DNA of 64,000 bases from an uncultured archaeon (GTDB lineage: Archaea > Iainarchaeota > Iainarchaeia > Iainarchaeales > 1-14-0-10-31-34): positions 221,272 to 285,271 of the forward strand of contig CAZSOZ010000001.1 in assembly GCA_964608675.1 (NCBI GenBank), given 5' to 3'. The notes beneath the pieces were generated by a model, which saw only the letters and a list, made by a program, of their open reading frames with translations, made no database searches and had not been told where the DNA came from. The position numbers and the translations under genes are program-made. Shown in pieces: positions 2,101 through 34,179 of the stretch. Position 1 is the stretch's first letter, and each line of letters starts with the position of its first letter.

Positions 2101-3286
2101 AATTTTTAGGAGTTCATTTCTACAGTTTTCGCCAAATAGTTTTTTTTTCGTCTATTGTTTGGATTTTAGATGATTCTTCATAGTTTGAATGCTGTCTTCT
2201 GGTTTAATGTTTTTGTTTGATATTTTGATTGGACAGTCTTATTTATTTGAAAAACCAAGTTTTATACATAACTTAGAATCCTGTTCGTCTTATTCAATGG
2301 TTCTGTTGATTAAGCCTTCCAAAAGATTTATCTGAATCAGCATAAAAAGCATGAAAAAAAGGGGAAACCAAGAATTCCGCTGAATATCTTGTGTATTGGC
2401 TTGATTTTGGCTGAAAATAGCTTAAATATGGCTCATTTTTATTAGACATAACCCGTATAAGACACATTATACGTGTTTTCCTAGAGGGGACTTAATCAAA
2501 AAACGCGAAAAATCAGCTTTACTGGAAGCAAGGAGGGTACAGACAGGAAAATAAGCATCGGCAGATTAAGAGTTATGTATACAAATTGAGGCAAATTTAA
2601 TACAGCTCAAAAAACATTAGCAAAATAGCTTTTCAGATAAAAAACTTCTCAAAATTAAAAAATTTCATAAAAAATTTTTATAAAAAAAAATTAAAATAAA
2701 ATATTCTTTTCTTTTCACACAAATTCAAAAAAATCAGAAAACACAGGAAAAAAAAACAAAAAAAAGAAAAAAAGCTTTTTTGGGGCTTTTTAGTTAATTT
2801 AGTTCATACGAAGCAGACATTTTCTAAAGTTTTTTGCTTAATTCTTTAAATTCATAAAAAATATTGCTTTTTTTTAACCTTTTTTAATTTTTTTTTAGTT
2901 ATTTGGTTTAATTAAGCTTTTTTAGGCAGTCAAATGCGTTTTTGGCTTGTTTTTTGGTTCTTTTGCTTTCCAGCAGGTTTATAACCCCCAACAACAAATA
3001 ATTATGTATAATTTTGCTACATAACTATCGGGCTTTTGGGGTTTTTATTCTCTTTTCCGTGTTCTTTTCTGCTTTTTTTTTACTTATTTTGGGGTTTGAT
3101 ATTGATTTTGATTGTGGTTGAGGGTTGAATGTTGGAACACGCAAATGCGGGATATGGAGTATTTTCTTTTTGCAAGGAAAAAAATTTGGGGCTGTTCTAA
3201 TGGAAAATGCTAATGGATTCAAATAAAGGGTTTTTTTTAGTTAAATTAAAACAAGTTTATAAACAGTTATGTATATATTTATTTTT

Positions 3287-3877
3287 ATGTTTGAATTTTT
3301 TTTTCAAAAAATTAAATTATTTTTTTTAATTTTTATTTTATTTGGATTTATTGGTTCTATTTCTTATTCTAATGTTAATTCAAATGCTTTAGTCTGCGGT
3401 GATTCAACCGGAGACGGAAAAGTCAATATTGCTGATTTATCTTTTTTGATTAATTATATTTTTTATTCAGGTCCTGTTCCTGAACCTATTGGAATAGCAA
3501 ATGTTGATAACAGCGGGGAAGTTAATATTGCTGATGCTTTTTATTTATCCAATTATATTTTTTATTCTGGTCCTGCGCCTAATTGTCCGGTAATTCAGCC
3601 AATAATTGTTATTCCTGAAGAAGGCCAAACTTTAAGTTCTCCTGTTTATGTTGCTGTTGAAAATCAAGGCATTGCTGATTCTTCTGAAATTAATGCTGTT
3701 AAGCTTTATTATTCTCTTGATAATTCAGATTGGGTTTATTTGCAGACTGATACTTCTGCGTCTGAGAATTTGTGGGAGTTTTCTGTTGAGCTTGAACCTG
3801 GTTTTAAATATATTATGGTTATTATGGAGTCAACTGAAGCCAGAACTTCTCCTTCTGTCTTAATCGAAGTAATCTGA
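3287..3877 (+). CDS. Secreted protein with two dockerin-type Ca-binding repeats.
   Basis: A signal peptide (KIKLFFLIFILFGFIGSISYS) is followed by GDSTGDGKVNIADLSFLINYIF and NVDNSGEVNIADAFYLSNYIF, which match dockerin type I repeats. The ORF track starts at 3269; the ATG at 3287 is the more plausible start. Confidence 0.6.
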   Translation: MFEFFFQKIKLFFLIFILFGFIGSISYSNVNSNALVCGDSTGDGKVNIADLSFLINYIFYSGPVPEPIGIANVDNSGEVNIADAFYLSNYIFYSGPAPNCPVIQPIIVIPEEGQTLSSPVYVAVENQGIADSSEINAVKLYYSLDNSDWVYLQTDTSASENLWEFSVELEPGFKYIMVIMESTEARTSPSVLIEVI

Positions 3878-3879
3878 TT

Positions 3880-4512
3880 TTATTTTATTCTTTTTTTGTG
3901 AAAATCTTTAATGAATGAATTCATTACATTTTTTCTTATGTCTGTAAGGGTTTTTTCATTTGTTTCTTCCATATCTATCATTTTTCCTTTTCTTGTTTGA
4001 ATTATTATGTTTCCTCCATCGTGGGATATTGTAGAGAATTCAACCAGCAAATCAATTCCGTTGTATTTTATTCTTGTTAAATAAGTTTTTTCTGAATAAA
4101 TTCTTCTGCCTATTTTGCGTTTATAGGTTTCTATAAATTCTTGGCTTGGCTTGCTTAATTGTTTAATTTCGCCTACTGGGGGAATTATTTTTTCCGAATG
4201 TATGTTTCCTGTCCGGCTTGTTATTTTTAATCCTGTTTTTTTGAGTGTTTCTTCTTGTTTTTTTCTTTTTTTGTTTGCTTTTGATATTAGTGTTTGAATT
4301 TGTCTTAAGGGTTTTGGGGTATTTCTTAAATATTTTGGTTTTCTATTGATTTTTTTCATATAACTAATTTTGTTTTTTTTATTAATAAATTTTTGCGTTT
4401 TCTTTTTTTTTGTGCTTGTTTTTAATTTCTTTTGTTCTTCCTTTATTGCATGAATTATCTTGATACTGCGGTTCTCGCTGCAAAAAAAGCAGGAAAAATT
4501 ATTTCTTCTCAT
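3880..4512 (-). CDS. Hypothetical basic protein; the start is probably an internal Met near 4359, which avoids overlap with the IMPase gene.
   Basis: ORF only; Lys/Arg-rich; no motif recognised. Confidence 0.3.
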   Translation of the reverse strand: MRRNNFSCFFCSENRSIKIIHAIKEEQKKLKTSTKKKKTQKFINKKNKISYMKKINRKPKYLRNTPKPLRQIQTLISKANKKRKKQEETLKKTGLKITSRTGNIHSEKIIPPVGEIKQLSKPSQEFIETYKRKIGRRIYSEKTYLTRIKYNGIDLLVEFSTISHDGGNIIIQTRKGKMIDMEETNEKTLTDIRKNVMNSFIKDFHKKRIK

Positions 4513-5229
4513 AGGGGGAAATTTACTGATCTTTCAAAAGTTAAATATAAGGGAGAAAGGGATATTGTGACTGAAGTTGATTTTGAAGCAGAAAAAATCA
4601 TTAAAGAAACAATTCTCAAAAGTTTTCCTTCTCATGAAATTCTTGCAGAGGAAACTCCAAGAGGTTATGAATTAGCTGACAATCTTTGGGTTGTGGATCC
4701 TTTGGACGGCACAGTTAATTTTGCTCACAATTACCCTAATTTTTGTGTTTCTATTGCTTTTAAACAGCAGGAGCAGACTCTTGTTGGGGTAATTTTTAAT
4801 CCGGTTTTGAATGAATTGTTTACTGCTGTTAAAGGAAAAGGCGCTTTTTTGAATGAAAAAAAAATTTTTGTTTCAAAAAACGCTGATTTAATTCGCATTC
4901 TGCTTAACACAGGTTTTTCTTATAATCGCGGAGAAAAAATGGAGTTTACTTTGAATGCAGTAAGAAGAATGCTTTATAAAATAAAAGACATTCGAAGAAG
5001 CGGTTCTGCAGCATTAGATTTAGCTTGTGTTGCCTGCGGAAGGACTGATGCTTATCTTGAATATCATTTAAAGCCGTGGGATTTATGTGCAGGAGCTTTA
5101 TTGGTTGAAGAAGCAGGAGGAAAAGTTTCTGATCCGGCGGGCTCTCAATTAAAGTCCCTTCCAATTGACTGCTTTGCTTCAAACAGCTTAATTCATGAAA
5201 AGCTTTTAAAAATAATAAACGAAAAATAA
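4450..5229 (+). CDS. suhB: Inositol monophosphatase / fructose-1,6-bisphosphatase family protein.
   Basis: Motifs WVVDPLDGTVNF, EEAGG and a conserved start MNYLDTAVLAAKKAGKII. The ORF track begins at 4432. Confidence 0.8.
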   Translation: MNYLDTAVLAAKKAGKIISSHRGKFTDLSKVKYKGERDIVTEVDFEAEKIIKETILKSFPSHEILAEETPRGYELADNLWVVDPLDGTVNFAHNYPNFCVSIAFKQQEQTLVGVIFNPVLNELFTAVKGKGAFLNEKKIFVSKNADLIRILLNTGFSYNRGEKMEFTLNAVRRMLYKIKDIRRSGSAALDLACVACGRTDAYLEYHLKPWDLCAGALLVEEAGGKVSDPAGSQLKSLPIDCFASNSLIHEKLLKIINEK

Positions 5230-5239
5230 TTATGTATAA

Positions 5240-5848
5240 TTAGAGTTTTATTTCTTCGAATGAGTCCATTGATACGTTTTCTCTTACTCTGTTTTCTTTT
5301 ATTTTTGTGTCTGATTCAATTACTTTGTCTGAAAATTGAGCAAATGCTTTCAATAGTTTTGGATCTAATTCTTGTTTTAAGTAAACTAGTATTCCTCCTG
5401 TACTGTTTTCTTTTAGTTTTCCTGTTGTATGGTGCACGAACTTCAAAACTGATTTTTCATTGTTATAAATCAGTAAAGTGTTGATTGAATCCAGTATTAA
5501 ATAATCTATTTTTGTTTTTTCCATTAATTTCAGTATCGCTAAACTGATTTGAGTCAGTGAATTTGGGTTGTCTATGTATTGTGTTTTTTCGTCACTCCAG
5601 CTTATTTTTCCTTTTGAAATGCTTTTGCTTATGCAGTCAATAAAATAAATGTTTTTTTGATTGATTTTTTTTTCTTTTATTTCTTTTTCCAGTGTTTTTT
5701 TTGTTTTGTTCACTGAAACAAAACATATTGATTTCTTTTTTAATGAAATTCCTTTCAGGATATTCATTATTCTTTCCTTATAGTTTTCATCTGGAACAAC
5801 CAGAATAATGTTTTGAATTTTTTCCAGTTCTTTAACTATTTTGTTCAT
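5240..5848 (-). CDS. KaiC/RecA-superfamily-like protein lacking a Walker A motif; a paralog of 30065-30628 and 30625-31542.
   Basis: It has a Walker-B-like YLILDSINTLLIYNNEKSVLKFVHHTTGKLKENSTGGILVY but no GxxGxGK[ST]. It is collinear with the two ORFs at 30.0-31.5 kb. Confidence 0.4.
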   Translation of the reverse strand: MNKIVKELEKIQNIILVVPDENYKERIMNILKGISLKKKSICFVSVNKTKKTLEKEIKEKKINQKNIYFIDCISKSISKGKISWSDEKTQYIDNPNSLTQISLAILKLMEKTKIDYLILDSINTLLIYNNEKSVLKFVHHTTGKLKENSTGGILVYLKQELDPKLLKAFAQFSDKVIESDTKIKENRVRENVSMDSFEEIKL

Positions 5849-5945
5849 GTTATTAATGAATAGTTTAATTCCTTTAAATACTTTTATTTGTTTTGCTTTA
5901 TTTTACCGCAAAGTATTTTAAACGTTTATTTTTAGTTTTTTTATT

Positions 5946-6170
5946 ATGCCTAGAAGAAAAAAGCCTGTTGAAGGCAAAATAATAAATAAAAGAGAGGATA
6001 ATGTCTGGAGAGAATGGTACAGCAAACTTACTCCTGCAGATCACGATAAAATGCTTGCTAAATTAGGTTTAGATGAAGAAGACAGAGAAGAATTTTTTGA
6101 GGAATCCAATATAGGGAAACCCCAAACCAAGCCAAAAACAAAAAGCAAAAAAGGAAAGAAAAAAAAGTAA
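5946..6170 (+). CDS. Small basic protein (MPRRKKP...), unknown function.
   Basis: ORF with a Lys-rich C-terminal tail. Confidence 0.3.
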   Translation: MPRRKKPVEGKIINKREDNVWREWYSKLTPADHDKMLAKLGLDEEDREEFFEESNIGKPQTKPKTKSKKGKKKK

Positions 6171-6560
6171 TTATTTTATTTGCAGTTCAACTGTTTTTTT
6201 GAATTTTTTTGAAGGATAACTGTAGCCTGATTCTTCTATGGTTATTTCTGTTGCAATAACTGCAATTTCTTGTTCTCCTTTTATTGCATAATTTTTTGGA
6301 AATACATCAATGTTTATTGTTTTTGTTTCTCCTGAATTAAGTTTTCCTAATTCTATTTGTTCTTTTTCTGCGTTGGTTTTGTTTAATCCCAGCTGGTTTC
6401 CGGCAATTATTTCCAGCCTTACTTTTTTTTCCTGCGGATAACGGTTAATTACTTCTATATTCATTCTTACAGGTTTTTTCTCCTGTAAGTCAAGTTTGAA
6501 TGGCACAAAATGCGTGTTAATTGCAATACTCAAAATCTTCCCCTCCTTTAAACAAATCAA
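6171..6560 (-). CDS. Hypothetical protein.
   Basis: ORF only. Confidence 0.3.
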   Translation of the reverse strand: MICLKEGKILSIAINTHFVPFKLDLQEKKPVRMNIEVINRYPQEKKVRLEIIAGNQLGLNKTNAEKEQIELGKLNSGETKTINIDVFPKNYAIKGEQEIAVIATEITIEESGYSYPSKKFKKTVELQIK

Positions 6561-6698
6561 GAATCAGTAAAATTATATGACATAAACTTAATTTAAATCT
6601 TTATTTTTTTTTGTTTTTTCCAAAAAGAATATAAATAAGTAAAAGAATAATCTATTAGAAAAGGAAAAACTATTTTTCCTTGTTTTTTTTGTGGAATT

Positions 6699-7175
6699 AT
6701 GTCTGAACTGCCTGAAAGCTCTCTTGTAAGAAAAACTTTCACAATTAGAACAATGGACTTGCCACCGAACGTAAAATTAACTAAACGTTCAATGCTCCGC
6801 TGGTTTGCTTTGGCTTTTGGTTTAATTTCTGAAAAGGAATCCCGCACAACAGTTCTTGAAGTTCTTGATGCGCTTTTTTATCTTAATCTTTCAAAAAAAG
6901 CTAATCCGACTGTTTTGGAAATTCAGGAGTACCTTAAAAAAAAGCATTTAAAGAAAATTTCTGAAAAATTACTGCGTTATCATTTAAACCGCATGAAGGA
7001 CACTGATTTGCTTGTCAGAAAGAAGCAAATGTATTTATTTAATCCTGCTCCTTTTGCAGAGCGTGATGACTTCAAGGCTTCTTTTAATCATTATATTACA
7101 AAGAACATTAATCATACTTTAATGAATTTAGAGGATGTTTTTTCTCAGCTGGCTGTAAGTTATAAAAAGAAGTAA
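6699..7175 (+). CDS. Hypothetical protein, possibly a winged-helix DNA-binding protein.
   Basis: ORF; weak pattern only. Confidence 0.3.
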   Translation: MSELPESSLVRKTFTIRTMDLPPNVKLTKRSMLRWFALAFGLISEKESRTTVLEVLDALFYLNLSKKANPTVLEIQEYLKKKHLKKISEKLLRYHLNRMKDTDLLVRKKQMYLFNPAPFAERDDFKASFNHYITKNINHTLMNLEDVFSQLAVSYKKK

Positions 7176-7192
7176 TCTCTTTTTTTTTTTGT

Positions 7193-8029
7193 ATGGCTTT
7201 CAAAAAAATTTCAATTGTTGTTTCAAAAACTGATCCAGCAGGCTTAAATATTGCAGAACACTTAATTAAAAAATTTGATTTCAAGCAAACAGAAAAACAA
7301 TTTAATTTTAATTCAGTTTATTTTTTTTCTTCAGAAAAAACGTTATTTGAATTGGTTTTCATTAACCAAAAACAGGTTTTTGCTGATTACTTGAATGAAT
7401 TAGATTCAGATTTAATTGTTTTTGCTTCCAAGCATTCAAGCAAAACAAAAAAACCTTGTTTAACTGTTCATTCAACAGGAAATTTTTCTAAAGCCGAATT
7501 AGGAGGAAAAACTAGAACTCTTTCTTTGGCATCTTCTTTTGTAATGAAAAATTTTTATTTAAATTTACTAAAAAAAGCCAAAAAAAGAAATTTTTTTCCG
7601 GTTTTTTTGGAGCAAACTCATCACGGTCCATTTCTTTTAAAACCTTCTGTGTTTATTGAAATTGGCAGTTCGGAGGAAGAATGGCAAAACCAAATTGCAG
7701 GAGAAATTTTGGCTGAAACAATAATAAATTCTTTTGAAAAATTTAATTCAAATTTTAGCACTGCTGTTGGAGTTGGAGGAACTCATTATTGTCCTGAATT
7801 CTCCAAAATAGAGGAAAGAACTCAGATTGCACTTTCTCACATTCTTTCAAAATATTATGTTGATGAAGTTGATTTGCGTTTGTTCAGGCAAATGCTGGAG
7901 AAAACCTTTGAAAAAGTTGATTTGGTTTTAATTGACTGGAAAGGTTTGACCAGCAGACAAAGAAACAAAATAATTTCTTTTTGCAAAGAACTCAGTCTTG
8001 ACTGGAAAAAAACAAGGGATTTTTTATAG
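7193..8029 (+). CDS. dtdA: D-aminoacyl-tRNA deacylase, archaeal type (DTD2).
   Basis: FASKHSSKTKKPCLTVHSTGNF, QTHHGP and FIEIGSSEEEW match Pyrococcus DTD2 (FASRHSSK..PALTTHVTGNW, ATHHGP, FFIEIGSSEEEW). About 278 aa, ending at a TAG stop. Confidence 0.85.
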   Translation: MAFKKISIVVSKTDPAGLNIAEHLIKKFDFKQTEKQFNFNSVYFFSSEKTLFELVFINQKQVFADYLNELDSDLIVFASKHSSKTKKPCLTVHSTGNFSKAELGGKTRTLSLASSFVMKNFYLNLLKKAKKRNFFPVFLEQTHHGPFLLKPSVFIEIGSSEEEWQNQIAGEILAETIINSFEKFNSNFSTAVGVGGTHYCPEFSKIEERTQIALSHILSKYYVDEVDLRLFRQMLEKTFEKVDLVLIDWKGLTSRQRNKIISFCKELSLDWKKTRDFL

Positions 8030-9826
8030 TCATTTTTTTTCCATCATTTTTTTTGCTTTTTTTGTTATGCTTTCTGCGTCCATTCCAAATCTTTTTTTGA
8101 TTTCTGCAGGAGCATCATAATCAATGTAGTCATCTGGAGCGCCAATTCTGTGCAGTTCAACATCTATTCCTTTTTCTTCAAGCATTTCTAATACTGCAGA
8201 ACCAAATCCGCCAGGCAATACATTTTCTTCTATTGTGATTGCTTTTCCTGTTTTTTTCAGACTCTCAATTAACATTTTTTCATCTAATGGTTTTGCAAAT
8301 CTTGCATTAATTACTTCTGCTGTAATTCCTTCTTTTTTTAGCAATGCTGCTGCTTCTTTTGTTTCTTTTAACATGAATCCAATACTTATTAATGAAATGT
8401 CTTTTCCTTCCTGAATTAATTCTGCTTTTCCTATTTCTAATGGTTTTGATTCTTTCATTTCAACTCCTATTGGAGTTCCTTTTGGGTACCTTACACTTAT
8501 TGGTCCTTTGTCGTATTTGTATGCTGTTAAAACCATGTCTCCTAATTCGTTTTCGTCTTTTGGAGCCATTACAACCATGTTTGGAATAATTCTTAAATAA
8601 CTTAAATCAAGTATTCCTCCTTGTGTTGGTCCGTCTCCTGTTATTGCAGATTTTGGAACCAAAAATTTTACTGGAAGATTCTGCAATGCTACATCATGAG
8701 CTATTTGGTCAAATCCTCTCTGTAAAAAAGGACTGTAAATTATTACAAAAGGTTTTACGCCTTCTGCTGCCAGTCCGGCTGCAAAAGTTACTGCGTGTTC
8801 TTCTGCTATTCCTACATCATAAAATCTTTCAGGGAATTTTTCTCCGAATTTAATTAGTCCTGTTCCTGCAGGCATTGCGGCTGTTATTGCAACTACTTTG
8901 TCGTCTTTTTCTGCTAATTTAATTACATCTTCTACTGCTGTTTTTTCAACTGAAACAGGTTTTTTTTTGGCAGGTTCTCCTGTTTCAATGTCGAATGCAG
9001 GGTGTTCGTGCCATCTTGCTTTGTCGTTTTCCATGTAAGGCATTCCTTTTCCTTTTATGGTTACTACGTGAAGCATTCTTGGCCCTGATAAATCTCTTAT
9101 TCTTTCTAATTCGCTTACTAGTTTTTCTACGTTGTGGCCGTCTATTGGTCCAAAATAATGTATTCCCATTTTTTCAAATATTGTTCCTACATCTCTTCTT
9201 GCTTTTTCTTCGTCTGCAAACATTGAAAGTTTTTTTAAGTGCTTGTACATTGCTCCTACATTTGGTGAAATGCTCATTTTGTTGTCATTTAAAATTATTA
9301 TCATGTCTGTTTGGTTGTATCCAATGTTGTTTAATGCTTCATAACACATTCCTCCTCCTAAAGCGCCGTCGCCTGTTATTGCAAGTACTTCGTATTCTTT
9401 TTTGTTTCTTTTTCTTGCTTCAGCTATTCCCATGGCTCCGCTTAAAGCAGTTGAAGCATGTCCTGCACTCCATATATCATAAGGTGTTTCTCCTCTGACA
9501 GTAAATCTTGGGATTCCTTTTGGAATGCAGATTGTGTGAAAGTATTTTCTTCTTCCTGTTAAAATTTTGTGGGTATAACTTTGATGGCTTGTATCAAACA
9601 AAATTTTGTCTTCAGGGCAATTGAATACGTAATGCAAGGCAACAGTTAATTCCACTACTCCTAAGTTTGCTCCAATATGTCCTCCGTTTATTGAACAAGT
9701 GTGAAGCAAAACTTCTCTTATTTCTTTTGATAATTCATTTAACTGTTCTACTTTTAATTTTTTTAAGTCTTCAGGACTGTCAATTTTTTCAAGTAATTTT
9801 GTTTTTGGAATATTGTTTTCTGCCAA
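8030..9826 (-). CDS. dxs: 1-deoxy-D-xylulose-5-phosphate synthase.
   Basis: GGHIGANLGVVELTVALHYVF...DTSHQSYTHKILTGRR; thiamine diphosphate motif GDGALGGGMCYEALNNIG; 598 aa. Confidence 0.9.
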   Translation of the reverse strand: MAENNIPKTKLLEKIDSPEDLKKLKVEQLNELSKEIREVLLHTCSINGGHIGANLGVVELTVALHYVFNCPEDKILFDTSHQSYTHKILTGRRKYFHTICIPKGIPRFTVRGETPYDIWSAGHASTALSGAMGIAEARKRNKKEYEVLAITGDGALGGGMCYEALNNIGYNQTDMIIILNDNKMSISPNVGAMYKHLKKLSMFADEEKARRDVGTIFEKMGIHYFGPIDGHNVEKLVSELERIRDLSGPRMLHVVTIKGKGMPYMENDKARWHEHPAFDIETGEPAKKKPVSVEKTAVEDVIKLAEKDDKVVAITAAMPAGTGLIKFGEKFPERFYDVGIAEEHAVTFAAGLAAEGVKPFVIIYSPFLQRGFDQIAHDVALQNLPVKFLVPKSAITGDGPTQGGILDLSYLRIIPNMVVMAPKDENELGDMVLTAYKYDKGPISVRYPKGTPIGVEMKESKPLEIGKAELIQEGKDISLISIGFMLKETKEAAALLKKEGITAEVINARFAKPLDEKMLIESLKKTGKAITIEENVLPGGFGSAVLEMLEEKGIDVELHRIGAPDDYIDYDAPAEIKKRFGMDAESITKKAKKMMEKK

Positions 9827-9926
9827 TAAAACACCTCTTTTTTTTTGCTTTTAATCTAACAATAATCTAGCTCAAAGTATTTAAAGCTTACGTTAATTTA
9901 AAAACCATATTTCGTCAAAAAGCGAA

Positions 9927-10448
9927 TTATTTCTTTTTCTTTTCTGTTATTTTTTTTATGTCTTTATGGATTGCGGTTACTACTGAAAAAACTTGTATTC
10001 CTTCTCCTCTTCCAAAAGGAGTAAGTTTTTCTCCTGTGGTTGCAATTATTCCTACTTGGTCTGGTTCTATTTTTAGTATTTCTGCTACTTTTTCTTTTAT
10101 TTCATCTGAAATTGGGTCGATTTTTGGTTTTTTGCATTCGATTGTTATTCCAACAGTAGTAATAACATAATTCATTTCTTTTAGTTTTTTTAATGGTTCT
10201 TTTAAGTATTCTTTTGAATCAGTTATTCCTTCTTCTTTGCATAATTTGTCTGCATGATTTCCTAGGCTTTTCCAGCCGATTATTTGTGCAATTGAATTAA
10301 ATAAAGAATGAAGTATTACGTCTGCATCTGAATTTCCTTTAAGGCCTCTTTCTCCTTTGATTTCTACTCCGCCTAAATACAGTTTTCTTTTTTCATGTAC
10401 ATGAGAAAACCTATGCGAATCTTGTCCTAATCCTACTTTGAAAGGCAT
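9927..10448 (-). CDS. ispF: 2-C-methyl-D-erythritol 2,4-cyclodiphosphate synthase.
   Basis: VGLGQDSHRF...GGVEI...GLKGNSDADVILHSL. Confidence 0.8.
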   Translation of the reverse strand: MPFKVGLGQDSHRFSHVHEKRKLYLGGVEIKGERGLKGNSDADVILHSLFNSIAQIIGWKSLGNHADKLCKEEGITDSKEYLKEPLKKLKEMNYVITTVGITIECKKPKIDPISDEIKEKVAEILKIEPDQVGIIATTGEKLTPFGRGEGIQVFSVVTAIHKDIKKITEKKKK

Positions 10449-10491
10449 AATATCCCGCTAAATTATGTATAAAACATTTTTTATACGCTTC

Positions 10492-11190
10492 TTAATTCTG
10501 TTCCTCTTTTTCTATTATTTTTTCTGCTAATTCCAGGTCTTCTTTTGTTGTAATTTTTATGTTGTCGTATGAACATTCAACAATTTTTATTTTTCCGTGA
10601 ATTCTTTCAACTAATTGCACGTCGTCTGTTCCGTAAAATCCATCTTTGTGTGCTTTTTCAAATGCTTTTACTGCAATATGAAAAATTATTGCCTGAGGGG
10701 TTTGCATTTGCCATAATTCTTTTCTTTTTAGGGTTTCTTTTACAAGCAAATCTTCATTAACTCTTTTGATTGTGTCTTTAACTCTTTGTGCTGCAACGCT
10801 TGCCCCAAATTTTTTTGCTTCTTGTATGCATTCTTTTATTGTTTTTTCTTTTACAAAAGGGTTAGCTGCATTATGAATTAATACAACATCTTCTTCTTTT
10901 GCTATTTCTTTTAGTTTTTTTATTCCGTTCCAGACAGAATCCTGCCTTTTTTCCCCGCCTTCCACAACAGCAATAATTTTTTTGAATTTTTCTCTTTCAG
11001 TTATTTTTTTTATTTCAGCAAAATCTTCTTTTGCAGCAGAAATAATTATTCCTTTAATTTTTTCTGTTTTATCAAATACTTTAATTGTTCTTGCAATTAT
11101 TTCCCTGCCTTTTATTTTGATGAAGACCTTGTTTTTTTCGTGCCCCATCCTGATTCCTTTTCCGCCTGCGCATACAACAACATAATTCAT
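10492..11190 (-). CDS. ispD: 2-C-methyl-D-erythritol 4-phosphate cytidylyltransferase.
   Basis: VVVCAGGKGIRMG N-terminal nucleotidyltransferase motif, at the size of IspD. Confidence 0.8.
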   Translation of the reverse strand: MNYVVVCAGGKGIRMGHEKNKVFIKIKGREIIARTIKVFDKTEKIKGIIISAAKEDFAEIKKITEREKFKKIIAVVEGGEKRQDSVWNGIKKLKEIAKEEDVVLIHNAANPFVKEKTIKECIQEAKKFGASVAAQRVKDTIKRVNEDLLVKETLKRKELWQMQTPQAIIFHIAVKAFEKAHKDGFYGTDDVQLVERIHGKIKIVECSYDNIKITTKEDLELAEKIIEKEEQN

Positions 11191-11251
11191 TTTTTTTTCC
11201 CTCTTTTATTATTGCCTCTTCAAAGTATTAAATTTTTTGTTTTTTTTTGGT

Positions 11252-11689
11252 TTATAGTTTTTTGTGGCTTGAAAACTTTTTTGGCGTTTTTTCAAATGAA
11301 ATTATTTTGTGTGAAAAAATCCTTGCTTTTTCCAGAATTTTTCCTGTTTTAGTTTTTCCAATTTTTGCGCTTGTTTTGAATTTTTTTGACATTCTGTTGA
11401 ATTTTAAATTTAATTTTTGGTTTCCTTTAATATAAATTATTACTTTACTTCTGATTGACATTAAAATTGCTTTTGTTACCGGTTTTTTGTTTTTCTTTTT
11501 GATTTTTTTTGCAGCTAGTTTGGCTATTGCAGTAATTATATTTGTTTTGGTTATTTCTTCTGCACTGAGGTTTTTGAATTCTTTTGGGGGGCTGGCATTA
11601 ACTAAATTGAGCATTCCTTTTCTTTTGAAACCGAATTTGTTGAAATATTCATGCACGCTTTCTTTTATGATTTGTTCTGTTTTGTCCAT
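11252..11689 (-). CDS. Hypothetical Lys-rich protein embedded in the MEP operon.
   Basis: ORF only. Confidence 0.3.
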   Translation of the reverse strand: MDKTEQIIKESVHEYFNKFGFKRKGMLNLVNASPPKEFKNLSAEEITKTNIITAIAKLAAKKIKKKNKKPVTKAILMSIRSKVIIYIKGNQKLNLKFNRMSKKFKTSAKIGKTKTGKILEKARIFSHKIISFEKTPKKFSSHKKL

Positions 11690-11706
11690 TTTTTTTCCTG
11701 ATTTTT

Positions 11707-12867
11707 TTATTCTTCTTCAATTATTTTTCTTGTTTTTTCTCTTGCTTTTTTGTCTGCTTCCAATACGGTTTCAATTGAATCAGCTTTTTTGTTTTTGTGT
11801 TCGTCGATTACTTTTTTGATGATTTCAGGGATTTTTCCGTAAACAATTTTTTTGTCTAAAAAAGCATATACAGCAATCTCATTTGCTGCATTCATTGCTG
11901 AAGGAAGTGTTCCTCCTTTTTTTCCTGCTTCAAAAGCGTATTTTAAGCAGGGAAAATTTTCATAATCAGGGGCTTCAAAAGTAAGTTGTTTTGCTTTAAT
12001 TAAATCAAGTTTTGGAAAGTTATTTGGAATTCTTTTTGGGTAGCTTAAAGCATATTGGATTGGCATGCGCATATCGTGTGTTCCAATTTGCGCCATAATG
12101 CTTCCGTCTACAAACTCTATCATTGAATGAATTAAACTTTGAGGATGTACTATTACTTCTATTTCTTCAAAATTTAAATCATATAACCATTTTGCTTCTA
12201 TTACTTCTAAGCCTTTATTCATTAATGTTGAGGAATCAATTGTTATTTTTGCTCCCATGCTCCAGGTTGGATGTCCTAAAGCTTGTTCTGGAGTAGAATT
12301 ATAGAATTCTTTTCTTTTTTTTCCTTTGAACGGCCCGCCAGAACAGGTAATAAGCACTCTGTTTACTTTGTTTCTTTCTTCTCCGTTTAAACATTGAAAT
12401 AAAGCTGAATGCTCTGAATCAATAGGCATCAAAGTAATGCCTTTTTCTTTTACTGCTTTCATTATTGGCTGGCCTCCGGCAACCAAAGTTTCTTTGTTTG
12501 CTAAAGCAATGTTTTTTCCTTTTTTGATTGCTTTCATTGTAGGTTGCATTCCAATTGAGCCTACAACTGCTATGATTGTTTGTTCAACTTCCTGCATTAC
12601 TGCAATTTCTTTCAGTCCTTTCATTCCTGAAACAATTTCGACTTCTTTTCCAATTTTTTTTTCTAATTCTTCTGCTGAGTTTTCTTCAAATAAACAGGCT
12701 TTTTCTGGCTTAAATTCTTTTATTTGTTCAATCATTTTTTCTACTTCGTTGAATGCAGCCAACCCAATTATTTTGAATTCTTTTTGATGGTTTTTAACTA
12801 CATCCAAAGTCTGGGTGCCAATGCTTCCTGTTGAACCCAAAATACTTATTTTCTTCATTTTAATCAT
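11707..12867 (-). CDS. dxr: 1-deoxy-D-xylulose-5-phosphate reductoisomerase.
   Basis: ISILGSTGSIGTQTLDV NADPH-binding motif, LANKE, CSGGPF; 386 aa. Confidence 0.85.
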   Translation of the reverse strand: MIKMKKISILGSTGSIGTQTLDVVKNHQKEFKIIGLAAFNEVEKMIEQIKEFKPEKACLFEENSAEELEKKIGKEVEIVSGMKGLKEIAVMQEVEQTIIAVVGSIGMQPTMKAIKKGKNIALANKETLVAGGQPIMKAVKEKGITLMPIDSEHSALFQCLNGEERNKVNRVLITCSGGPFKGKKRKEFYNSTPEQALGHPTWSMGAKITIDSSTLMNKGLEVIEAKWLYDLNFEEIEVIVHPQSLIHSMIEFVDGSIMAQIGTHDMRMPIQYALSYPKRIPNNFPKLDLIKAKQLTFEAPDYENFPCLKYAFEAGKKGGTLPSAMNAANEIAVYAFLDKKIVYGKIPEIIKKVIDEHKNKKADSIETVLEADKKAREKTRKIIEEE

Positions 12868-12982
12868 TAATATTTGGCTTCTTTAATTATTTAAAGGATT
12901 CTTTTTTTTTGTTTCTTCAATTTATTTAAAAATCGTTGCCTACTTTTATTTTTTCATATTTTTTATGAATTTGAGGGATGAA

Positions 12983-15622
12983 ATGAAACACATTTATTTT
13001 TTTGATGAAGGTTCAAAAGAACAAAAAAATTTGTTGGGAGGAAAAGGAAGCAATTTATGTGAAATGACTAATTTAGGTCTCCCAATTCCTAAGGGTTTTG
13101 TGATTTCAACTGAAGCATGCATTAATTTTTTTGATTCAAATGATTTTTCTGAAGGTCTTGAAACTGAATTAAATACTGCTTTGAAAAAACTTGAAGAGAG
13201 AACAGGAAAAAAATTTGATTCAAATGAAAATCCTTTGCTTGTTTCTGTTCGTAGCGGAGCAAGGGTTTCAATGCCTGGAATGATGGATACAGTTTTAAAT
13301 CTCGGCTTGAATGAAAAAACAATTCATGCAATGACGGAAAAAACTCAAAATAAACGGTTTGTTTTGGATTCTTATAGGCGGTTTATTCAAATGTTTTCTG
13401 ATGTTGTTTTGGGTTTAAATCATGATGATTTTGAAGAAGTCCTTGAAAAAGAAAAGTCTTCTGTTGGAATAAAGTTTGATTTTGAATTAAATGAACAATC
13501 TCTTGAAAAAATAATTAATGAATTCAAGGAAATAGTTGAAAAAAAGACTTTTAAGCCTTTTCCTGAAAACCCTGAAGAACAATTAATTTTGGCAGTTAAA
13601 GCGGTTTTTAGTTCTTGGAATAACAAAAGAGCTAAAACTTACAGGAAATTAAACAGTATTCCTGATGACTGGGGGACTGCAGTAATAATTCAGGAAATGG
13701 TTTTCGGCAATTTAGGAAATGATTCTGGGACAGGAGTTTGTTTTACTCGAAATCCTTCTGACGGCACAAAAGGGCTTTATGGAGAATTTCTTTTGAATGC
13801 ACAGGGGGAAGATGTTGTTGCAGGAATCAGGACACCAAAAAAAATTTCTGAATTAAAAGAAGTAATGCCTAAAATTTTCGATGAACTTTCTTCTTTTGCA
13901 GTAAAATTAGAAAAGCATTACAAGGACATGCAGGACATGGAATTCACCATAGAAAAAAACAGGCTGTTTGTTTTGCAGACAAGAAACGGCAAAAGAACTG
14001 CTCCTGCTGCAATCAGGATTGCAGTTGAAATGGTTGAAGAACAATTAATTTCAAAACAGGCGGCTTTAATGAAAATTGATTCTTTGCATTTAAATCAGCT
14101 TCTCCATAAAAGAATTGATTCTAATCAGGAATTAAATGAAATTGCTTTTGGCTTGAATGCTTCTCCTGGAGCTGCAACAGGAAAAATTGTTTTTGATTCA
14201 GACAAAGCTGTTGAATTAGGAGAAAAAGAAAACGTGATTTTGGTTAGAAAGGAAACTTCTCCTGATGACATTCATGGAATGCATGCATCAAAAGGAATTC
14301 TTACTTCTCGCGGGGGAATGACAAGCCATGCCGCGGTTGTTGCACGAGGAATGGGAAAACCGTGTGTTGCTGGATGTGAAGAAATAAAAATTGATTATTC
14401 TGCTAAAGAAATGAAGGCAAAAAATTCTGTTTTAAGGGAAGGAGATTTTATTTCAATTGACGGAACAACAGGAAAAGTGTTTTCAGGTGAACTAAAATTA
14501 GTTGAACCCAAACCAGATGAATTTTTTTCGCGGATTCTTTCATGGAGCGATGAAATAAAAGAATTAGCAGTTAGAACTAATGCAGATACTCCAAAAGACG
14601 CAAGAAAAGCAAGGGAATTAGGTGCAAAAGGAATTGGTTTATGCAGAACTGAACACATGTTTTTTGAGCCTGAAAGGCTTCCTATTGTTCAGAAAATGAT
14701 TTTGTCTTCTTCTGTTGATGAAAGAAAAAAATACTTGAATGAACTTGAAAAAATGCAGAGAGAAGACTTTGAAGGAATTCTTGAAGCAATGAATTCTTTT
14801 CCTGTTACAATTCGTTTAATTGATCCTCCTTTGCATGAATTTTTGCCTTCAAGAGAACATTTAATTAAGAAAATCGCTGAATTGAAGCATTCAGCTAATT
14901 TAGAAGACGGAAATAAATTAATTGCTGAATTACAGGAAAAAGAATCTTTGTTGAAGGAAGTCGAGGATTTAAGTGAATCAAATCCAATGCTTGGTTTTCG
15001 GGGATGCAGGCTGGGAATAATTTATCCTGAAATAATTGAAATGCAGACTAAAGCTGTTGCTGAAGCAGTAAAAAACTTAAAGAAAAAAGGTTTGAATCCT
15101 AAACCTGAAATAATGGTTCCTTTGGTTGGAATAGCAAAAGAGCTTGAGATTTCAAGAAAAACAATTGAAAAAATTTTAAAGGAAATTTTGCCTGATGAAA
15201 GCATTCCAATCGGCACAATGATTGAACTGCCTAGAGCAGCTTTAACTGCAGATGAAATTTCAAATCACGCTGATTTTTTTTCTTTCGGCACAAATGATTT
15301 AACTCAGACAACTTTTGGTTTTTCTCGTGATGATGTTGAAGGAAAATTTTTGAATAAGTATGTTGAACAAAAAATTCTTGAAATTTCTCCTTTTGTTTCT
15401 CTTGACGTAAAAGGAGTGGGAAAATTAATGGAAATAGCAGTTGGGCATGCAAGAAAAGCAAAACCTGAAATAAAATTAGGAATTTGCGGTGAGCACGGAG
15501 GGGACCCTGATTCAATTGAATTCTGCCACAAACTTAAATTAGATTATGTTTCTTGTTCTCCTTTCAGAGTGCCAATTGCAAGATTGTCTGCTGCACAGGC
15601 AAGCATTAGAAAGAAACAATAA
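12983..15622 (+). CDS. ppdK: Pyruvate, phosphate dikinase.
   Basis: GGMTSHAAVVARGMGKPCV phospho-His motif and a PEP-utilising C-terminal domain. The likely start is MKHIYFFDEG at 12983, preceded by gagggatga; the ORF track gives 12965. Confidence 0.9.
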   Translation: MKHIYFFDEGSKEQKNLLGGKGSNLCEMTNLGLPIPKGFVISTEACINFFDSNDFSEGLETELNTALKKLEERTGKKFDSNENPLLVSVRSGARVSMPGMMDTVLNLGLNEKTIHAMTEKTQNKRFVLDSYRRFIQMFSDVVLGLNHDDFEEVLEKEKSSVGIKFDFELNEQSLEKIINEFKEIVEKKTFKPFPENPEEQLILAVKAVFSSWNNKRAKTYRKLNSIPDDWGTAVIIQEMVFGNLGNDSGTGVCFTRNPSDGTKGLYGEFLLNAQGEDVVAGIRTPKKISELKEVMPKIFDELSSFAVKLEKHYKDMQDMEFTIEKNRLFVLQTRNGKRTAPAAIRIAVEMVEEQLISKQAALMKIDSLHLNQLLHKRIDSNQELNEIAFGLNASPGAATGKIVFDSDKAVELGEKENVILVRKETSPDDIHGMHASKGILTSRGGMTSHAAVVARGMGKPCVAGCEEIKIDYSAKEMKAKNSVLREGDFISIDGTTGKVFSGELKLVEPKPDEFFSRILSWSDEIKELAVRTNADTPKDARKARELGAKGIGLCRTEHMFFEPERLPIVQKMILSSSVDERKKYLNELEKMQREDFEGILEAMNSFPVTIRLIDPPLHEFLPSREHLIKKIAELKHSANLEDGNKLIAELQEKESLLKEVEDLSESNPMLGFRGCRLGIIYPEIIEMQTKAVAEAVKNLKKKGLNPKPEIMVPLVGIAKELEISRKTIEKILKEILPDESIPIGTMIELPRAALTADEISNHADFFSFGTNDLTQTTFGFSRDDVEGKFLNKYVEQKILEISPFVSLDVKGVGKLMEIAVGHARKAKPEIKLGICGEHGGDPDSIEFCHKLKLDYVSCSPFRVPIARLSAAQASIRKKQ

Positions 15623-16727: not shown

Positions 16728-17690
16728 TTATTTTTTTTCGTGTTTTTCTGCAAATTTTTCTGCTTTTTTTAATGAAAGAAGCCCGTTGTGCGCGCCTATT
16801 GTTTTTATTACTGAGCAGGCGTTAGCGGTTCCTATTTTTAGTGCTTCAGGAATTTTCTTTTTTGCAGTTAATGCAGAAATGAATCCTGTTGAAAAAGAAT
16901 CTCCTGCTCCTGTAACGTCTTTTCTTTCAACATCATAAGCTTTTTGTTTAAAGAATTTTTTTCCGTTAAATGCAGTGCTTCCTTTTCTTCCATCAGTCAT
17001 TACAACTAAATTAACTTTCATTTGATTTAATTCTCTTATTGCATCTCTTTCGTTTTTCTTTTTTGTCCATTCAGTAATTTCATCTTTGTTTAAAATAATT
17101 AAATAACAGTTTTTTATCATGTTTTTTAGTTTGTGTAACCCTAATTTTCTTTGAGATGCTCCTGGATTAAATGCAAGCTTTATATTGTTTTTTTTGCAGA
17201 ACGCGCTTATTTTTTCCAGAAATTTTATGCTGGTTCCGAATGAACTCAAATAAATCCAGTTCATTTTTTTTAGTTTTCTCCAGGGAACCTTTTTTTCATC
17301 CCAGTTATTGTTGGCGCCTCTGTAAGTCATTATTGTTCTGTCTCCTTTTGGTTTTCTGAAAATAACTGAAAAGCCTGTTTCTTTTTCTGAGGCAACTGCA
17401 AGAATTTTTATTTTTTCTATTTTAAGCAGGTTTTCTATTTTTTTTGCAGTTGAATCGTTTCCAAGTGAAATTACTGCGTGTGCATCAAAGCCCATTTTTT
17501 TGAATCCAACAGAAGTATTTAATGCACCTCCCCCGAAATCAAAGTGAATTTCGTCTATATCAAATTTTTTGCCCAGTTTTAAGCATAAATCTGTTCCTTT
17601 TTCTGTTTTGCTTTTTCTGAAATGAAATTCGCTTGTTTTAACAAAAATATCCTGTGTGGCTGAACCAATGCATGCAATTTTTTTATTCAT
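16728..17690 (-). CDS. PfkB-family carbohydrate kinase (ribokinase-like).
   Basis: GGGALNTSVGF and DVTGAGDSFSTGFISAL, the PfkB signature regions. Confidence 0.7.
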   Translation of the reverse strand: MNKKIACIGSATQDIFVKTSEFHFRKSKTEKGTDLCLKLGKKFDIDEIHFDFGGGALNTSVGFKKMGFDAHAVISLGNDSTAKKIENLLKIEKIKILAVASEKETGFSVIFRKPKGDRTIMTYRGANNNWDEKKVPWRKLKKMNWIYLSSFGTSIKFLEKISAFCKKNNIKLAFNPGASQRKLGLHKLKNMIKNCYLIILNKDEITEWTKKKNERDAIRELNQMKVNLVVMTDGRKGSTAFNGKKFFKQKAYDVERKDVTGAGDSFSTGFISALTAKKKIPEALKIGTANACSVIKTIGAHNGLLSLKKAEKFAEKHEKK

Positions 17691-17889
17691 CTTTTAGAAT
17701 AACACAGAAATCTTATTTATTCTTTGTGCAAAAAAAAAAACAGTTATTTATGTATAATTTTTTGTTTTTTTATTAGTTTTCTTTAATGCAAACCTTTTTA
17801 TTTGAGTTAAGGAGTATATTATTTGCAGTGTTTTTACAGCTTTTTTTCACGCAGCTGCTGCATAATTATGAAGAAATCATGCAATTAAG

Positions 17890-19116
17890 TTGAGTTATAT
17901 GAAGGTATTAATGCTGGGCTGGGAGTTTCCTCCTTTTAAATCCGGAGGACTTGGAACTTATTTGTATGGCTTTACTAAATCTCTTGCAGGAAAAGGCGCA
18001 GAAATCACTTTTGTTATGCCTTCAACCGGCCTTAAAATTAATCCTGGTTTCATTAATTTAATTCAAGCTGATGACAACTATTCTCATTTGGATGTAGTTG
18101 AAATTGAAGGTTTTGGTTTGCATCCTTATATTCCTTCTCTTTCTTTTAATTCTTCTTCGACTGTTTTGAATGATTCTCCTTCTTCTGATAAAAGCATTAA
18201 TGCTTATGGAATGAATTTCTTTCAGAAAGTAAAGAATTACACTAATTCTGCTGTCAACAGAATGCAGTCTGTTTATTGTGATGTAATTCACTGCCATGAC
18301 TGGATGACTTTTCCTTCAGGTATTGCATTAAAGGAAAGAAAAAAAAAGCCTTTGGTTGTCACAATTCATTCAACTGAATATGACAGGACAGGAAACCTTT
18401 CTCCTAATCATGTGATATGTGAAATTGAAAGAAAAGGCATGCATTCAGCTGATAAAGTAATTACAATCAGCAATTTCATGAAAAAGCAGTTAATTGAAAA
18501 ATATGATGTTCCTGAACAAAAAATTTGCGTTGTATATAACGGTATAGATAAATCTTCTTATGTTGTTCAAGAAAAAACTTTTTTTCCGTTGAACGAAAAA
18601 ATTGTTTTGTTTTTAGGGCGTTTGACTATTCAAAAAGGCCCTGACTGGTTTCTTGAAGCAGCTTATCAAGTCCTTCAATTTCGTCCTAACACGCGTTTTG
18701 TGGTTGTAGGAAACGGAGACATGTTTTCTCAGTTAATTAATAAAGCTATTTCTATGGGGATTTCTGATAAAATTGTTTTTGCAGGCTTTCAGGATGACGT
18801 AAGAAAATTTTATTCTGTTGCTGATTTGTTTGTAATGCCTTCGGTTTCTGAGCCTTTTGGCTTGACTGCTTTGGAAGCTATGGCTTCAAATACTCCTGTA
18901 ATTATTTCAAAGCAGTCAGGAGTAAGCGAAGTAATAAATCATTGTTTTAAACTTGATTTCTGGGATACTCAGGAAATGACAAACAAAATTGTAGGAATCC
19001 TTGATTACCCTCCTTTATCTAATGAACTTAAAAAGAATGCTTTTAATGAACTGCAGTCTTTCAGCTGGGATACAGTTGCAGACAAATGCCTTGAAGTTTT
19101 CAGAGAGGTAATCTGA
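17890..19116 (+). CDS. glgA: Glycogen synthase, archaeal GlgA-like GT-B glycosyltransferase (GT4/GT5).
   Basis: N-terminal MKVLMLGWEFPPFKSGGLGTYLYGFTKSLAGKGAEITFVMP resembles Pyrococcus glycogen synthase (MKVLLLGFEFLPVKVGGLAEAL...). HCHDWMT and a C-terminal glycos_transf_1 EPFGLT..EAMA are also present. Confidence 0.65.
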   Translation: MSYMKVLMLGWEFPPFKSGGLGTYLYGFTKSLAGKGAEITFVMPSTGLKINPGFINLIQADDNYSHLDVVEIEGFGLHPYIPSLSFNSSSTVLNDSPSSDKSINAYGMNFFQKVKNYTNSAVNRMQSVYCDVIHCHDWMTFPSGIALKERKKKPLVVTIHSTEYDRTGNLSPNHVICEIERKGMHSADKVITISNFMKKQLIEKYDVPEQKICVVYNGIDKSSYVVQEKTFFPLNEKIVLFLGRLTIQKGPDWFLEAAYQVLQFRPNTRFVVVGNGDMFSQLINKAISMGISDKIVFAGFQDDVRKFYSVADLFVMPSVSEPFGLTALEAMASNTPVIISKQSGVSEVINHCFKLDFWDTQEMTNKIVGILDYPPLSNELKKNAFNELQSFSWDTVADKCLEVFREVI

Positions 19117-20294: not shown

Positions 20295-20349
20295 ATTTAA
20301 TAATTTATTTTGTGCATTATTTATAGTTTATTTTTTTAGGGGGTATTAA

Positions 20350-20544
20350 ATGGATTCAAGTGAATATTTTGGAAGCAAGGCAGGAACTGTTTGGGGGGCA
20401 TTAAACAATAATAAACCAATGACTGCAATTCAAATAAAAAAAGCAACTAAACTAAAATCAGAGCATGTTTTTGCTGCTTTGGGCTGGCTTGCAAGAGAAG
20501 GAAAAATAGGGATTTCAAAAAACAGGTTTTATTTAACTGAATAA
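20350..20544 (+). CDS. Small winged-helix-like protein.
   Basis: 64-aa ORF with a GGGGT ribosome-binding site upstream. Confidence 0.3.
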   Translation: MDSSEYFGSKAGTVWGALNNNKPMTAIQIKKATKLKSEHVFAALGWLAREGKIGISKNRFYLTE

Positions 20545-20585
20545 CTTTTTTTTTGATTGATTTTTTTTCTTTTATTTGTTTTTAG

Positions 20586-22367: not shown

Positions 22368-22442
22368 TAATTCACCGTTTTAATCCATTAATAATCAGGC
22401 TTTTCTTTTATTAAATTTATCTTATTAAAAAAAGAGTTTTTT

Positions 22443-22736: not shown

Positions 22737-22813
22737 TTACTCCCCTCAAATAATATTTTCTTTTTTTTTTATATTTAAATAAATTCTATTTAAATTAGAT
22801 TTATCTATAGAGT

Positions 22814-23800: not shown

Positions 23801-23845
23801 AATCTCTTTAAGACTTTGTTTTTTATATTTCTATTGGTTTTTTGA

Positions 23846-34172: not shown

Positions 34173-34179
34173 TTTTTTT

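Follow-up and report, generated by a model that had tools for sequence, protein, structure and literature searches.

Bacterial-type MEP pathway genes and a clade-specific small basic protein family in an Iainarchaeota genome

Four genes of the methylerythritol phosphate (MEP) pathway, dxs, dxr, ispD and ispF, together with a 145-aa lysine-rich open reading frame (ORF), here called X, form a compact cluster on a 64,000-nucleotide stretch of contig CAZSOZ010000001.1, and this whole stretch is referred to below as the window. The window is likely to derive from an Iainarchaeota genome in which horizontally acquired MEP genes of bacterial type have been domesticated and are read from several promoters, with X as a real clade-specific gene. 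The presence of bacterial MEP genes in DPANN archaea is an already established phenomenon, and what is new here is only that the lineage is Iainarchaeota family 1-14-0-10-31-34, that the four-gene cluster is rearranged and that X belongs to an orphan family.

The MEP gene cluster and its host

The five genes lie head-to-tail on the minus strand in the order dxr-X-ispD-ispF-dxs, spanning positions 8030-12867, with spacers of 17 nt between dxr and X, 61 nt between X and ispD, 43 nt between ispD and ispF and 100 nt between ispF and dxs (Table 1). This is the layout that had been given in the initial annotation, and its ORF boundaries agree exactly with those obtained here. All four enzymes score above the curated cut-offs of their NCBI equivalog models, well outside what chance would give. 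Dxs contains DXP_synthase_N (PF13292), Transket_pyr (PF02779) and Transketolase_C (PF02780), thus all three of its domains, and its translation displays a GDG...NDN pattern (ITGDGALGGG ... IIILNDNKMSI), which is the thiamine-diphosphate-binding motif. Dxr shows the NADPH-binding GSTGSIG and the catalytic DSEHSA motifs, while IspF has a GxDxH motif (GQDSH) and the histidine of SDADVILH, residues that are taken to be the Asp/His/His zinc ligands by reference to E. coli IspF. IspD remains below the cut-off of the ribitol-5-phosphate cytidylyltransferase model NF001183 (134 bits, cut-off 166). Judged by these family models and motifs, dxs, dxr, ispD and ispF correspond to steps 1, 2, 3 and 5 of the MEP pathway, respectively, and encode genuine MEP enzymes of the bacterial type.

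Table 1. Features of the window discussed in the text
Feature	Position	Strand	Remarks
dxr (1-deoxy-D-xylulose-5-phosphate reductoisomerase), 386 aa	11707-12867	minus	TIGR00243, 509 bits (cut-off 316); NF009114, 520 bits (cut-off 461); three Dxr Pfam domains
X, Lys-rich ORF, 145 aa	11252-11689	minus	belongs to a family of small, basic, helical proteins restricted to the clade
ispD (MEP cytidylyltransferase), 232 aa	10492-11190	minus	TIGR00453, 215 bits (cut-off 181); PF01128, E=1.5e-61
ispF (methylerythritol cyclodiphosphate synthase), 173 aa	9927-10448	minus	TIGR00151, 151 bits (cut-off 116); PF02542, E=3.5e-41
dxs (1-deoxy-D-xylulose-5-phosphate (DXP) synthase), 598 aa	8030-9826	minus	TTG start; equivalog model TIGR00204, 716 bits (cut-off 466); three Pfam domains
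TATA-box-like element TTTAAATA	12888-12895	minus	28 nt before the dxr start codon
Promoter-like motif TTTAATACTTTG	11221-11232	minus	~40 nt before the ispD start codon
TATA-like element TTTTATACATAA	10463-10474	minus	ispD-ispF spacer; coordinates counted by hand
TATA-like element TTTAAATACTTTG	9873-9885	minus	~59 nt before the dxs start codon, downstream of the T-runs that follow ispF
DTD2 (archaeal-type D-aminoacyl-tRNA deacylase)	7193-8029	plus	PF04414, E=1.8e-66; convergent with dxs, 0 nt between
Pyruvate, phosphate dikinase (PPDK)	12965-15622	plus	TIGR01828, 1347 bits; divergent from dxr; conserved neighbour
Archaeal RecJ/GAN-type nuclease	27267-28685	minus	NF053576 RecJ_archaeal, 534 bits (cut-off 360); PF21763 DHH_CID
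Pilus-like locus	33183-44507	minus	two T2SSF genes, a FlaI-like ATPase, three pilin-like ORFs
Three pilin-like ORFs	43180-44507	minus	N-termini KGQ/RGQ followed by a hydrophobic stretch, as in class III signal peptides
Ferredoxin, 62 aa, 2x[4Fe-4S]	51383-51571	plus	directly 5' of the geranylgeranyl-reductase (GGR) family gene
GGR family protein	51586-52788	plus	TIGR02032, 246 bits (cut-off 159)

Protein identities of 76-85% and collinearity with a classified relative place the window within the DPANN archaea, in a genome of the phylum Iainarchaeota (Diapherotrites) near GTDB family 1-14-0-10-31-34. In a scan of one genome per GTDB species, the best matches of Dxr were found in locus L001, which belongs to 'Ca. 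Diapherotrites archaeon CG10_big_fil_rev_8_21_14_0_10_31_34' (84% identity), and in L002, which is labelled 'Candidatus Micrarchaeota' at NCBI (81%). The L001 genome has the GTDB lineage d__Archaea;p__Iainarchaeota;o__Iainarchaeales;f__1-14-0-10-31-34 (PMC8204110 supplement), and its locus is collinear with positions 3269-12867 of the window, including the dxs/DTD2 junction (a slash marks a change of strand here and below). This junction recurs in three other records (L001, L083 and L085), and the PPDK/dxr arrangement on the opposite flank is also present in L083, L085 and L087 and partly in L002. The order PfkB..PPDK/dxr-X-ispD-ispF-dxs/DTD2 is complete in L083 and L085 and partial in L002, L084, L086 and L087, which are from other metagenomes. 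Within this core clade the four MEP enzymes are 76-85% identical, and the Dxr of the window shares 76-84% identity with those of L001, L002, L083, L085 and L087. Furthermore, the GC content of the cluster (0.30-0.34) is that of its surroundings (0.25-0.35 across the window, ~30% throughout), and the window proteins sit on an NCBI contig of 364,048 bp.

In the scenario that would best account for these features, an ancestor of the Iainarchaeal group most likely acquired dxs, dxr, ispD and ispF horizontally from bacteria, the nearest sequences in a limited sample being Clostridia/Firmicutes-like. The four enzymes would act together with the products of ispE, ispG and ispH, encoded elsewhere, to yield isopentenyl diphosphate (IPP) and dimethylallyl diphosphate (DMAPP), as can be deduced from a Diapherotrites relative with all seven genes. 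The cluster would be transcribed from several promoters, and X would have been inserted after dxr in the clade of the window only.

Completeness and origin of the pathway

The remaining steps of the pathway are not represented in the window: a Pfam scan of ORFs of at least 90 aa detected no GHMP-kinase, GcpE or LytB domain, and tblastn searches of the window with archaeal IspE, IspG and IspH returned nothing better than E=0.017. Similarly, 3-hydroxy-3-methylglutaryl-CoA synthase, the corresponding reductase, mevalonate kinase and isopentenyl-phosphate kinase are all missing among the domain-scanned ORFs of the window.

Several more distant archaeal clusters are more complete. Locus L003 carries ispH followed by dxr-ispF-ispE-ispD, and a metagenome scan with its IspH found the archaeal cluster L088 but no ispH from the core clade; in L088, ispH is divergent from dxr-ispD-ispF and adjoins an apparent archaeal histone gene, as judged by eye. 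L168 (GCA_964592925.1, an unlabelled metagenome-assembled genome, MAG) has six of the seven MEP genes in the order dxs-ispF-ispD-dxr/ispH-ispE, and L170 (GCA_016198125.1, 'Ca. Diapherotrites') has the same six with RuBisCO and YjbQ genes inserted. All seven are present in L172 (GCA_043803765.1, 'Ca. Diapherotrites'), arranged as ispG-dxs-ispF-..-ispD-..-dxr/ispH-..-ispE on a contig that also bears archaeal RecJ, Rad50 and ribosomal protein L44e. Moreover, two 'Ca. Diapherotrites' MAGs already have a gene product annotated as IspE at NCBI. In L003, L168, L170 and L172 the MEP cluster adjoins a homologue of the archaeal RecJ gene of the window, and in the clade of the window the four-gene cluster lies between DTD2 and PPDK, ~14 kb from RecJ. 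The RecJ-adjacent arrangement appears to be the older one. As a further observation on these loci, the RuBisCO large-subunit and YjbQ genes are located between ispF and ispD (positions 3097-4842 in L170 and 3591-5313 in L172), and the archaeal RecJ genes of both L170 and L172 contain an intein with a LAGLIDADG domain.

Because the four enzymes are so well conserved within the core clade and IspF is not known to have a substrate unless IspE is present, we infer that ispE, ispG and ispH are encoded elsewhere in the genome. That the organism runs the entire MEP route is thereby deduced from its relatives only. The same caution applies to the idea that the route feeds archaeal lipid synthesis, the basis of which is only the ferredoxin and GGR pair, the sole isoprenoid-using genes within the window, ~40 kb from the MEP cluster. 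One paper (PMC12892359) deduces that glycerol-1-phosphate dehydrogenase disappeared in the ancestor shared by Iainarchaeota, B1Sed10-29 and Micrarchaeota.

An alternative is that the four genes are the remnant of a pathway or a re-purposed partial module, ispE, ispG and ispH having been lost or never present. IPP would then come from the mevalonate route or from scavenged lipids, and the enzymes would have a different use, for example the supply of DXP for cofactors or of a methylerythritol-derived metabolite. Such a module would explain why the three genes are missing from the window and from every core-clade locus retrieved, while in archaeal relatives further away ispH and ispE still adjoin dxr, and it would fit the literature in which Iainarchaeota/Diapherotrites are described as carrying mevalonate genes. 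In addition, no core-clade IspE or IspH was recognised among the best 120 matches of two large profile searches with archaeal IspH and IspE, and none of these matches lies on a contig of 364,048 bp. On the other hand, the clade retains IspF, IspD and Dxr with intact catalytic motifs and at 76-85% identity, which points to continued selection on a complete route, and the searches covered the best 120 matches together with core-clade loci of ~10-20 kb each. A partial module is therefore rather unlikely. Lower still is the probability that the clade has uncoupled dxs-dxr-ispD-ispF from ispE/G/H, either with non-orthologous proteins for the missing steps or with a truncated route that leads to another end product, and with X as a new component, for example a regulator or scaffold.

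The origin of the genes was approached with neighbour-joining trees of Dxr sequences from the retrieved loci. The window and six close relatives group together with full bootstrap support (60/60), and all 13 archaeal sequences, including one from Woesearchaeota, form a single clade with weak support (9/60). In the first tree, this archaeal clade was placed next to Clostridia such as Lachnospiraceae, among Clostridia/Firmicutes sequences. The bacterial sample in these trees is biased by the way the loci were retrieved, and the trees are compatible with the published idea of a Firmicutes donor but do not establish it. Horizontal acquisition from bacteria, as suggested by the initial annotation, is hence favoured by the position of Dxr in the sample, but the donor lineage is not established. 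The transfer is not recent, because the GC content of the cluster equals that of its surroundings, and the host-like base composition along with the host-like TATA-type elements upstream of the genes indicates that it is old.

Vertical inheritance of the MEP genes from an early archaeal or DPANN ancestor would agree with the grouping of all 13 archaeal Dxr sequences, and the same archaeal RecJ gene stands beside the cluster in several divergent lineages, which indicates that the cluster is old within the group. In the sampled set, however, Firmicutes/Clostridia sequences surround the archaeal clade, and the pathway is sparse in Archaea, where published analyses attribute it to horizontal transfer. 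The chance that the genes were inherited vertically is slim, and acquisition from bacteria by an ancestor of the group is preferred.

ORF X and the promoter-like elements

ORF X was described as an unexplained member of the cluster in the initial annotation, and this description still holds as regards family and fold, yet X turns out to belong to a clade-restricted family fixed in position after dxr. It has no match in Pfam, NCBIfam or the sequences of the PDB, and a word-based homology search recovered the query itself only. An exhaustive phmmer search of 1.84 billion representatives, by contrast, identified five relatives (E-values from 5e-9 to 3e-4). Wherever the contig extends far enough to reveal the neighbouring genes, the relative is encoded between dxr and ispD, immediately after dxr, in the same synteny; two of the contigs recovered are short, ~1.3 kb each. 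L001 and L002 have positional homologues, and an ORF of 144-171 aa occupies the same position in at least seven further sequence-distinct loci (L002, L081/82, L083/84, L085, L086, L087 and the frameshifted L001). A hidden Markov model of the family matches core-clade loci only, and never distant archaeal MEP clusters or bacterial loci. The family consists of two subtypes, both of which are carried in tandem by L085 and L087, in opposite order.

The members of the family evolve rapidly, with identities of ~26-43% (64% in one pair) as compared to 76-85% for the flanking enzymes, although positions K23, G24, L28, N30, K47 and I86 are conserved and alignable. X itself has a pI of 10.5 and a net charge of ~+30, and the pI of the family ranges from 10 to 11. 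An AlphaFold2 model, built from only six sequences, is all-helical, with seven helices (pLDDT 80.6, pTM 0.72), and a fold search of the PDB with this predicted model gave no convincing match. X is frameshifted in L001 (1275-1720), so that it occupies two reading frames, whereas in L083 its 3' end is disrupted and the C-terminus altered by an insertion sequence (DDE_Tnp_1 transposase, 6488-7381), which suggests either that X is dispensable or that these two copies contain assembly errors.

A spurious open frame in AT-rich spacer DNA could likewise be A-rich and of low complexity, lack any known domain and change very fast, and the frameshift in L001 and the insertion-sequence cut in L083 are also what would be expected of it. 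Such a frame would not be kept in place at 144-171 aa in so many distinct loci, nor would it be expected to retain alignable conserved positions, to exist as two diverged tandem paralogues in L085 and L087, or to give a confident helical model from six sequences. Only a slight probability is thus left to a spurious X. Its conservation pattern marks X as a real gene, specific to the clade and fast-evolving, for a small basic protein that appears to be dispensable. As to function, the most plausible guess is that X binds nucleic acids or has a regulatory part as an accessory protein and is not an enzyme of the pathway, but confidence in this is low. The possibility of a decayed ispE was considered separately and rejected, as no tblastn similarity was found.

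A second family of small, very basic ORFs (pI ~10-11) was observed at positions 3880-4512 of the window (minus strand), 2454-2879 of L001 and 9170-9580 of L085. The C-terminal part of the 210-aa ORF of the window resembles the 141-aa ORF of L001 (38% over 55 aa, E=1.6e-8), and the latter, which is located between ispD and ispF, is in turn similar to a 136-aa ORF that occupies the equivalent place in L085. No such small basic gene is present in the 43-nt ispD-ispF spacer of the window. The inositol-monophosphatase-family gene at 4432-5229 (plus strand) overlaps ORF 3880-4512 by 81 nt when its listed TTG start is used, and its Pfam match begins at residue 10, so that the true start of this gene or the extent of the ORF is uncertain.

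With respect to transcription, the initial annotation had regarded the cluster as one operon. The common strand and the spacers of 17-100 nt agree with that view, while internal TATA-like elements and the T-runs after ispF speak against it. A single operon is doubtful, since ispD, ispF and dxs each have a TATA-like element upstream, and the elements of ispF and dxs recur in relatives, while that of ispD is weaker. Upstream of ispF, an element TT(T)TATACATAA is kept in all four relatives examined (L001, L002, L083 and L085), which carry TTATACATAA, near-identical to the TTTTATACATAA of the window. Upstream of dxs, the block AACGTA.GCTTTAAATACTTTGAGCTAGATTATTG has a nearly exact copy in L001 and close versions in L085 and L083. 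TTTAATA-type elements are found 5' of ispD in two of the four relatives, L002 and L085, and are missing from L001 and L083. The element TTTAAATA in front of dxr would represent an archaeal promoter. The cluster is therefore probably read from several archaeal-type promoters (those of dxr, ispF, dxs and possibly ispD) rather than as one operon, and dxr and X are probably co-transcribed. A riboswitch or other RNA element in the MEP cluster was sought in Rfam without a match.

At the level of the whole window, the 12-mer TTAAATACTTTG occurs nine times with at most one mismatch, compared to 2.25 expected occurrences, and none of 100 shuffles reaches this number. Four of the nine copies lie in spacers upstream of genes. 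The sites of the motif are 5874-5920, 9873-9884, 11221-11232 and five others. TTAAATACTTTG may correspond to the promoter consensus of the organism. Two of its copies face each other in the divergent spacer 5849-5945. TTTAAATA was also tried as a general promoter signal and rejected, since its count in the window equals chance.

Genomic neighbourhood

The archaeal genes that had been reported to share the window with the MEP cluster, namely DTD2, the ferredoxin and GGR pair and the class III-type pilin-like ORFs, all hold up, even though only one of the three pilin-like ORFs has a Pfam match, and this match is so weak that it falls short of the cut-off (PF04021, E=0.004). KaiC-like ATPases are also among the archaeal-type genes of the window. 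The 64-kb window contains no rRNA, tRNA or ribosomal protein gene, nor did Rfam yield a match.

The contig might in principle be bacterial, for example from a bacterium of the candidate phyla radiation, or a chimeric or mis-binned join of a bacterial MEP operon to archaeal DNA, a concern that had already been raised by the initial annotation. The bacterial-type neighbours (leucyl-tRNA synthetase (LeuRS), type I glyceraldehyde-3-phosphate dehydrogenase (GAPDH) and PPDK) and the lack of an rRNA, tRNA or ribosomal protein gene that would fix the domain directly could be read in its favour, but the junctions on both flanks of the cluster recur in records from different samples, archaeal RecJ, DTD2 and pilin-like ORFs are on the same contig of 364 kb, base composition is uniform, the collinear relative L001 is placed in Iainarchaeota by GTDB, and related MEP clusters occur on contigs with L44e, Rad50 and a histone-like ORF. 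A bacterial or chimeric origin is thus very unlikely, given the archaeal markers, the gene order recurring in relatives and the length of the contig, and this explanation can be regarded as largely refuted. A mosaic of bacterial and archaeal genes has already been described for DPANN archaea (PMC8204110).

LeuRS (48589-51273, minus strand) is of the bacterial type over residues 1-746 (TIGR00396 leuS_bact, 1005 bits, cut-off 548). The C-terminus of the archaeal LeuRS models TIGR00395 and NF008957 can be aligned with its C-terminal part (best stretch 516-894), and it may be a bacterial/archaeal hybrid enzyme. At 45771-47969 (plus strand), a type I (bacterial/eukaryotic-type) GAPDH (TIGR01534, 430 bits versus 367) is followed by phosphoglycerate kinase, and these two are further bacterial-type genes of central metabolism in this archaeon. 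A glycogen/sugar block at 16728-27210 comprises a PfkB kinase, a GT4/GT5 glycosyltransferase, GH57, a GalT/HIT-like protein, a eukaryote-like glycogen synthase (PF05693, E=1e-134), phosphoglucomutase and amylo-alpha-1,6-glucosidase; its PfkB..PPDK part is syntenic with the MEP cluster in every core-clade relative long enough to show it. The archaeal pilus-like locus also includes three large ORFs without a Pfam match (588, 366 and 320 aa) and a 923-aa LVIVD-repeat/VWA protein, and part of it also adjoins the MEP cluster in L168. Finally, a 1330-aa ORF at 55996-59988 (plus strand) has no Pfam match at E<=0.001.

Comparison with known MEP systems

DPANN archaea in which the mevalonate route is replaced or supplemented by the bacterial MEP pathway are known exceptions among Archaea. 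The pathway is common across a monophyletic group of 52 genomes of Woesearchaeota, where its genes are co-located (Castelle et al. 2021, PMC8204110), and it was found in Woesearchaeota subgroups F and J (Huang et al. 2021, PMC8421398). The distribution of both pathways in many DPANN genomes was treated by Castelle & Banfield 2018, as cited in PMC8204110, and the result of that work is summarised as a transfer from Firmicutes by Huang et al. 2021 (PMC8421398). Likewise, 'a few DPANN archaea' were stated to have MEP enzymes through horizontal transfer (Hoshino & Gaucher 2018, PMC6107057), and a complete pathway has been reported in the Micrarchaeota orders Norongarragalinales, Zaosheniarchaeales and Micrarchaeales, 'formerly only detected in Woesearchaeales' (2025 paper, PMC12892359). 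Full-text literature searches found no explicit report of the pathway in Iainarchaeota, and PMC12892359 reports none.

The window thus adds an Iainarchaeota clade to a published list made up of Woesearchaeota and some Micrarchaeota. It provides an example in which the acquired genes are domesticated, with host-like base composition, probable archaeal-type promoters and lineage-specific gene insertions, and it is useful for tracing the number and the donors of MEP acquisitions by DPANN archaea, while the current picture is unchanged. X represents a minor new orphan family; since its place after dxr does not vary, it is a candidate pathway-associated factor that is open to testing.

The clusters of Woesearchaeota resemble that of the window in being bacterial-type, co-located, present in small-genome DPANN archaea and attributed to bacterial transfer. 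The Woesearchaeota Dxr examined (L011) falls in the same loose archaeal cluster of the Dxr tree, but it is only 51% identical to the window protein, and L011 lacks X and has no further MEP genes on the annotated locus. The two also differ in phylum (Iainarchaeota versus Woesearchaeales). Moreover, many subgroup-J Woesearchaeota have a fused ispDF (PMC8421398), whereas ispD and ispF are separate in the window, and no UbiA prenyltransferase or fatty-acid gene adjoins the cluster of the window. Micrarchaeota belong to a DPANN phylum close to Iainarchaeota, and their pathway is likewise horizontally acquired (PMC12892359), but the Micrarchaeota locus L169 has ispG and ispH in a different context and does not match the MEP enzymes of the window.

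The archaeal loci L168, L170 and L172 are similar to the window in carrying dxs, ispF, ispD and dxr on one strand, and they lie beside the same archaeal RecJ gene. Their proteins are 51-56% (Dxr) and 52-65% (Dxs) identical to those of the window. Unlike the window, they possess ispH and ispE, oriented divergently to dxr, and in L172 ispG as well; X is absent, and other genes are inserted instead (form III-like RuBisCO, YjbQ, NUDIX, SET and SnoaL). The dxr, ispD, ispF and dxs genes of Clostridia/Selenomonadaceae encode the same enzyme families as those of the window, and all pass the equivalog models, with the retrieved bacterial Dxr sequences being 42-54% identical to that of the window. The retrieved bacterial loci do not carry X after dxr, whereas the genes of the window are accompanied by archaeal-style TATA-like elements and by archaeal neighbours.

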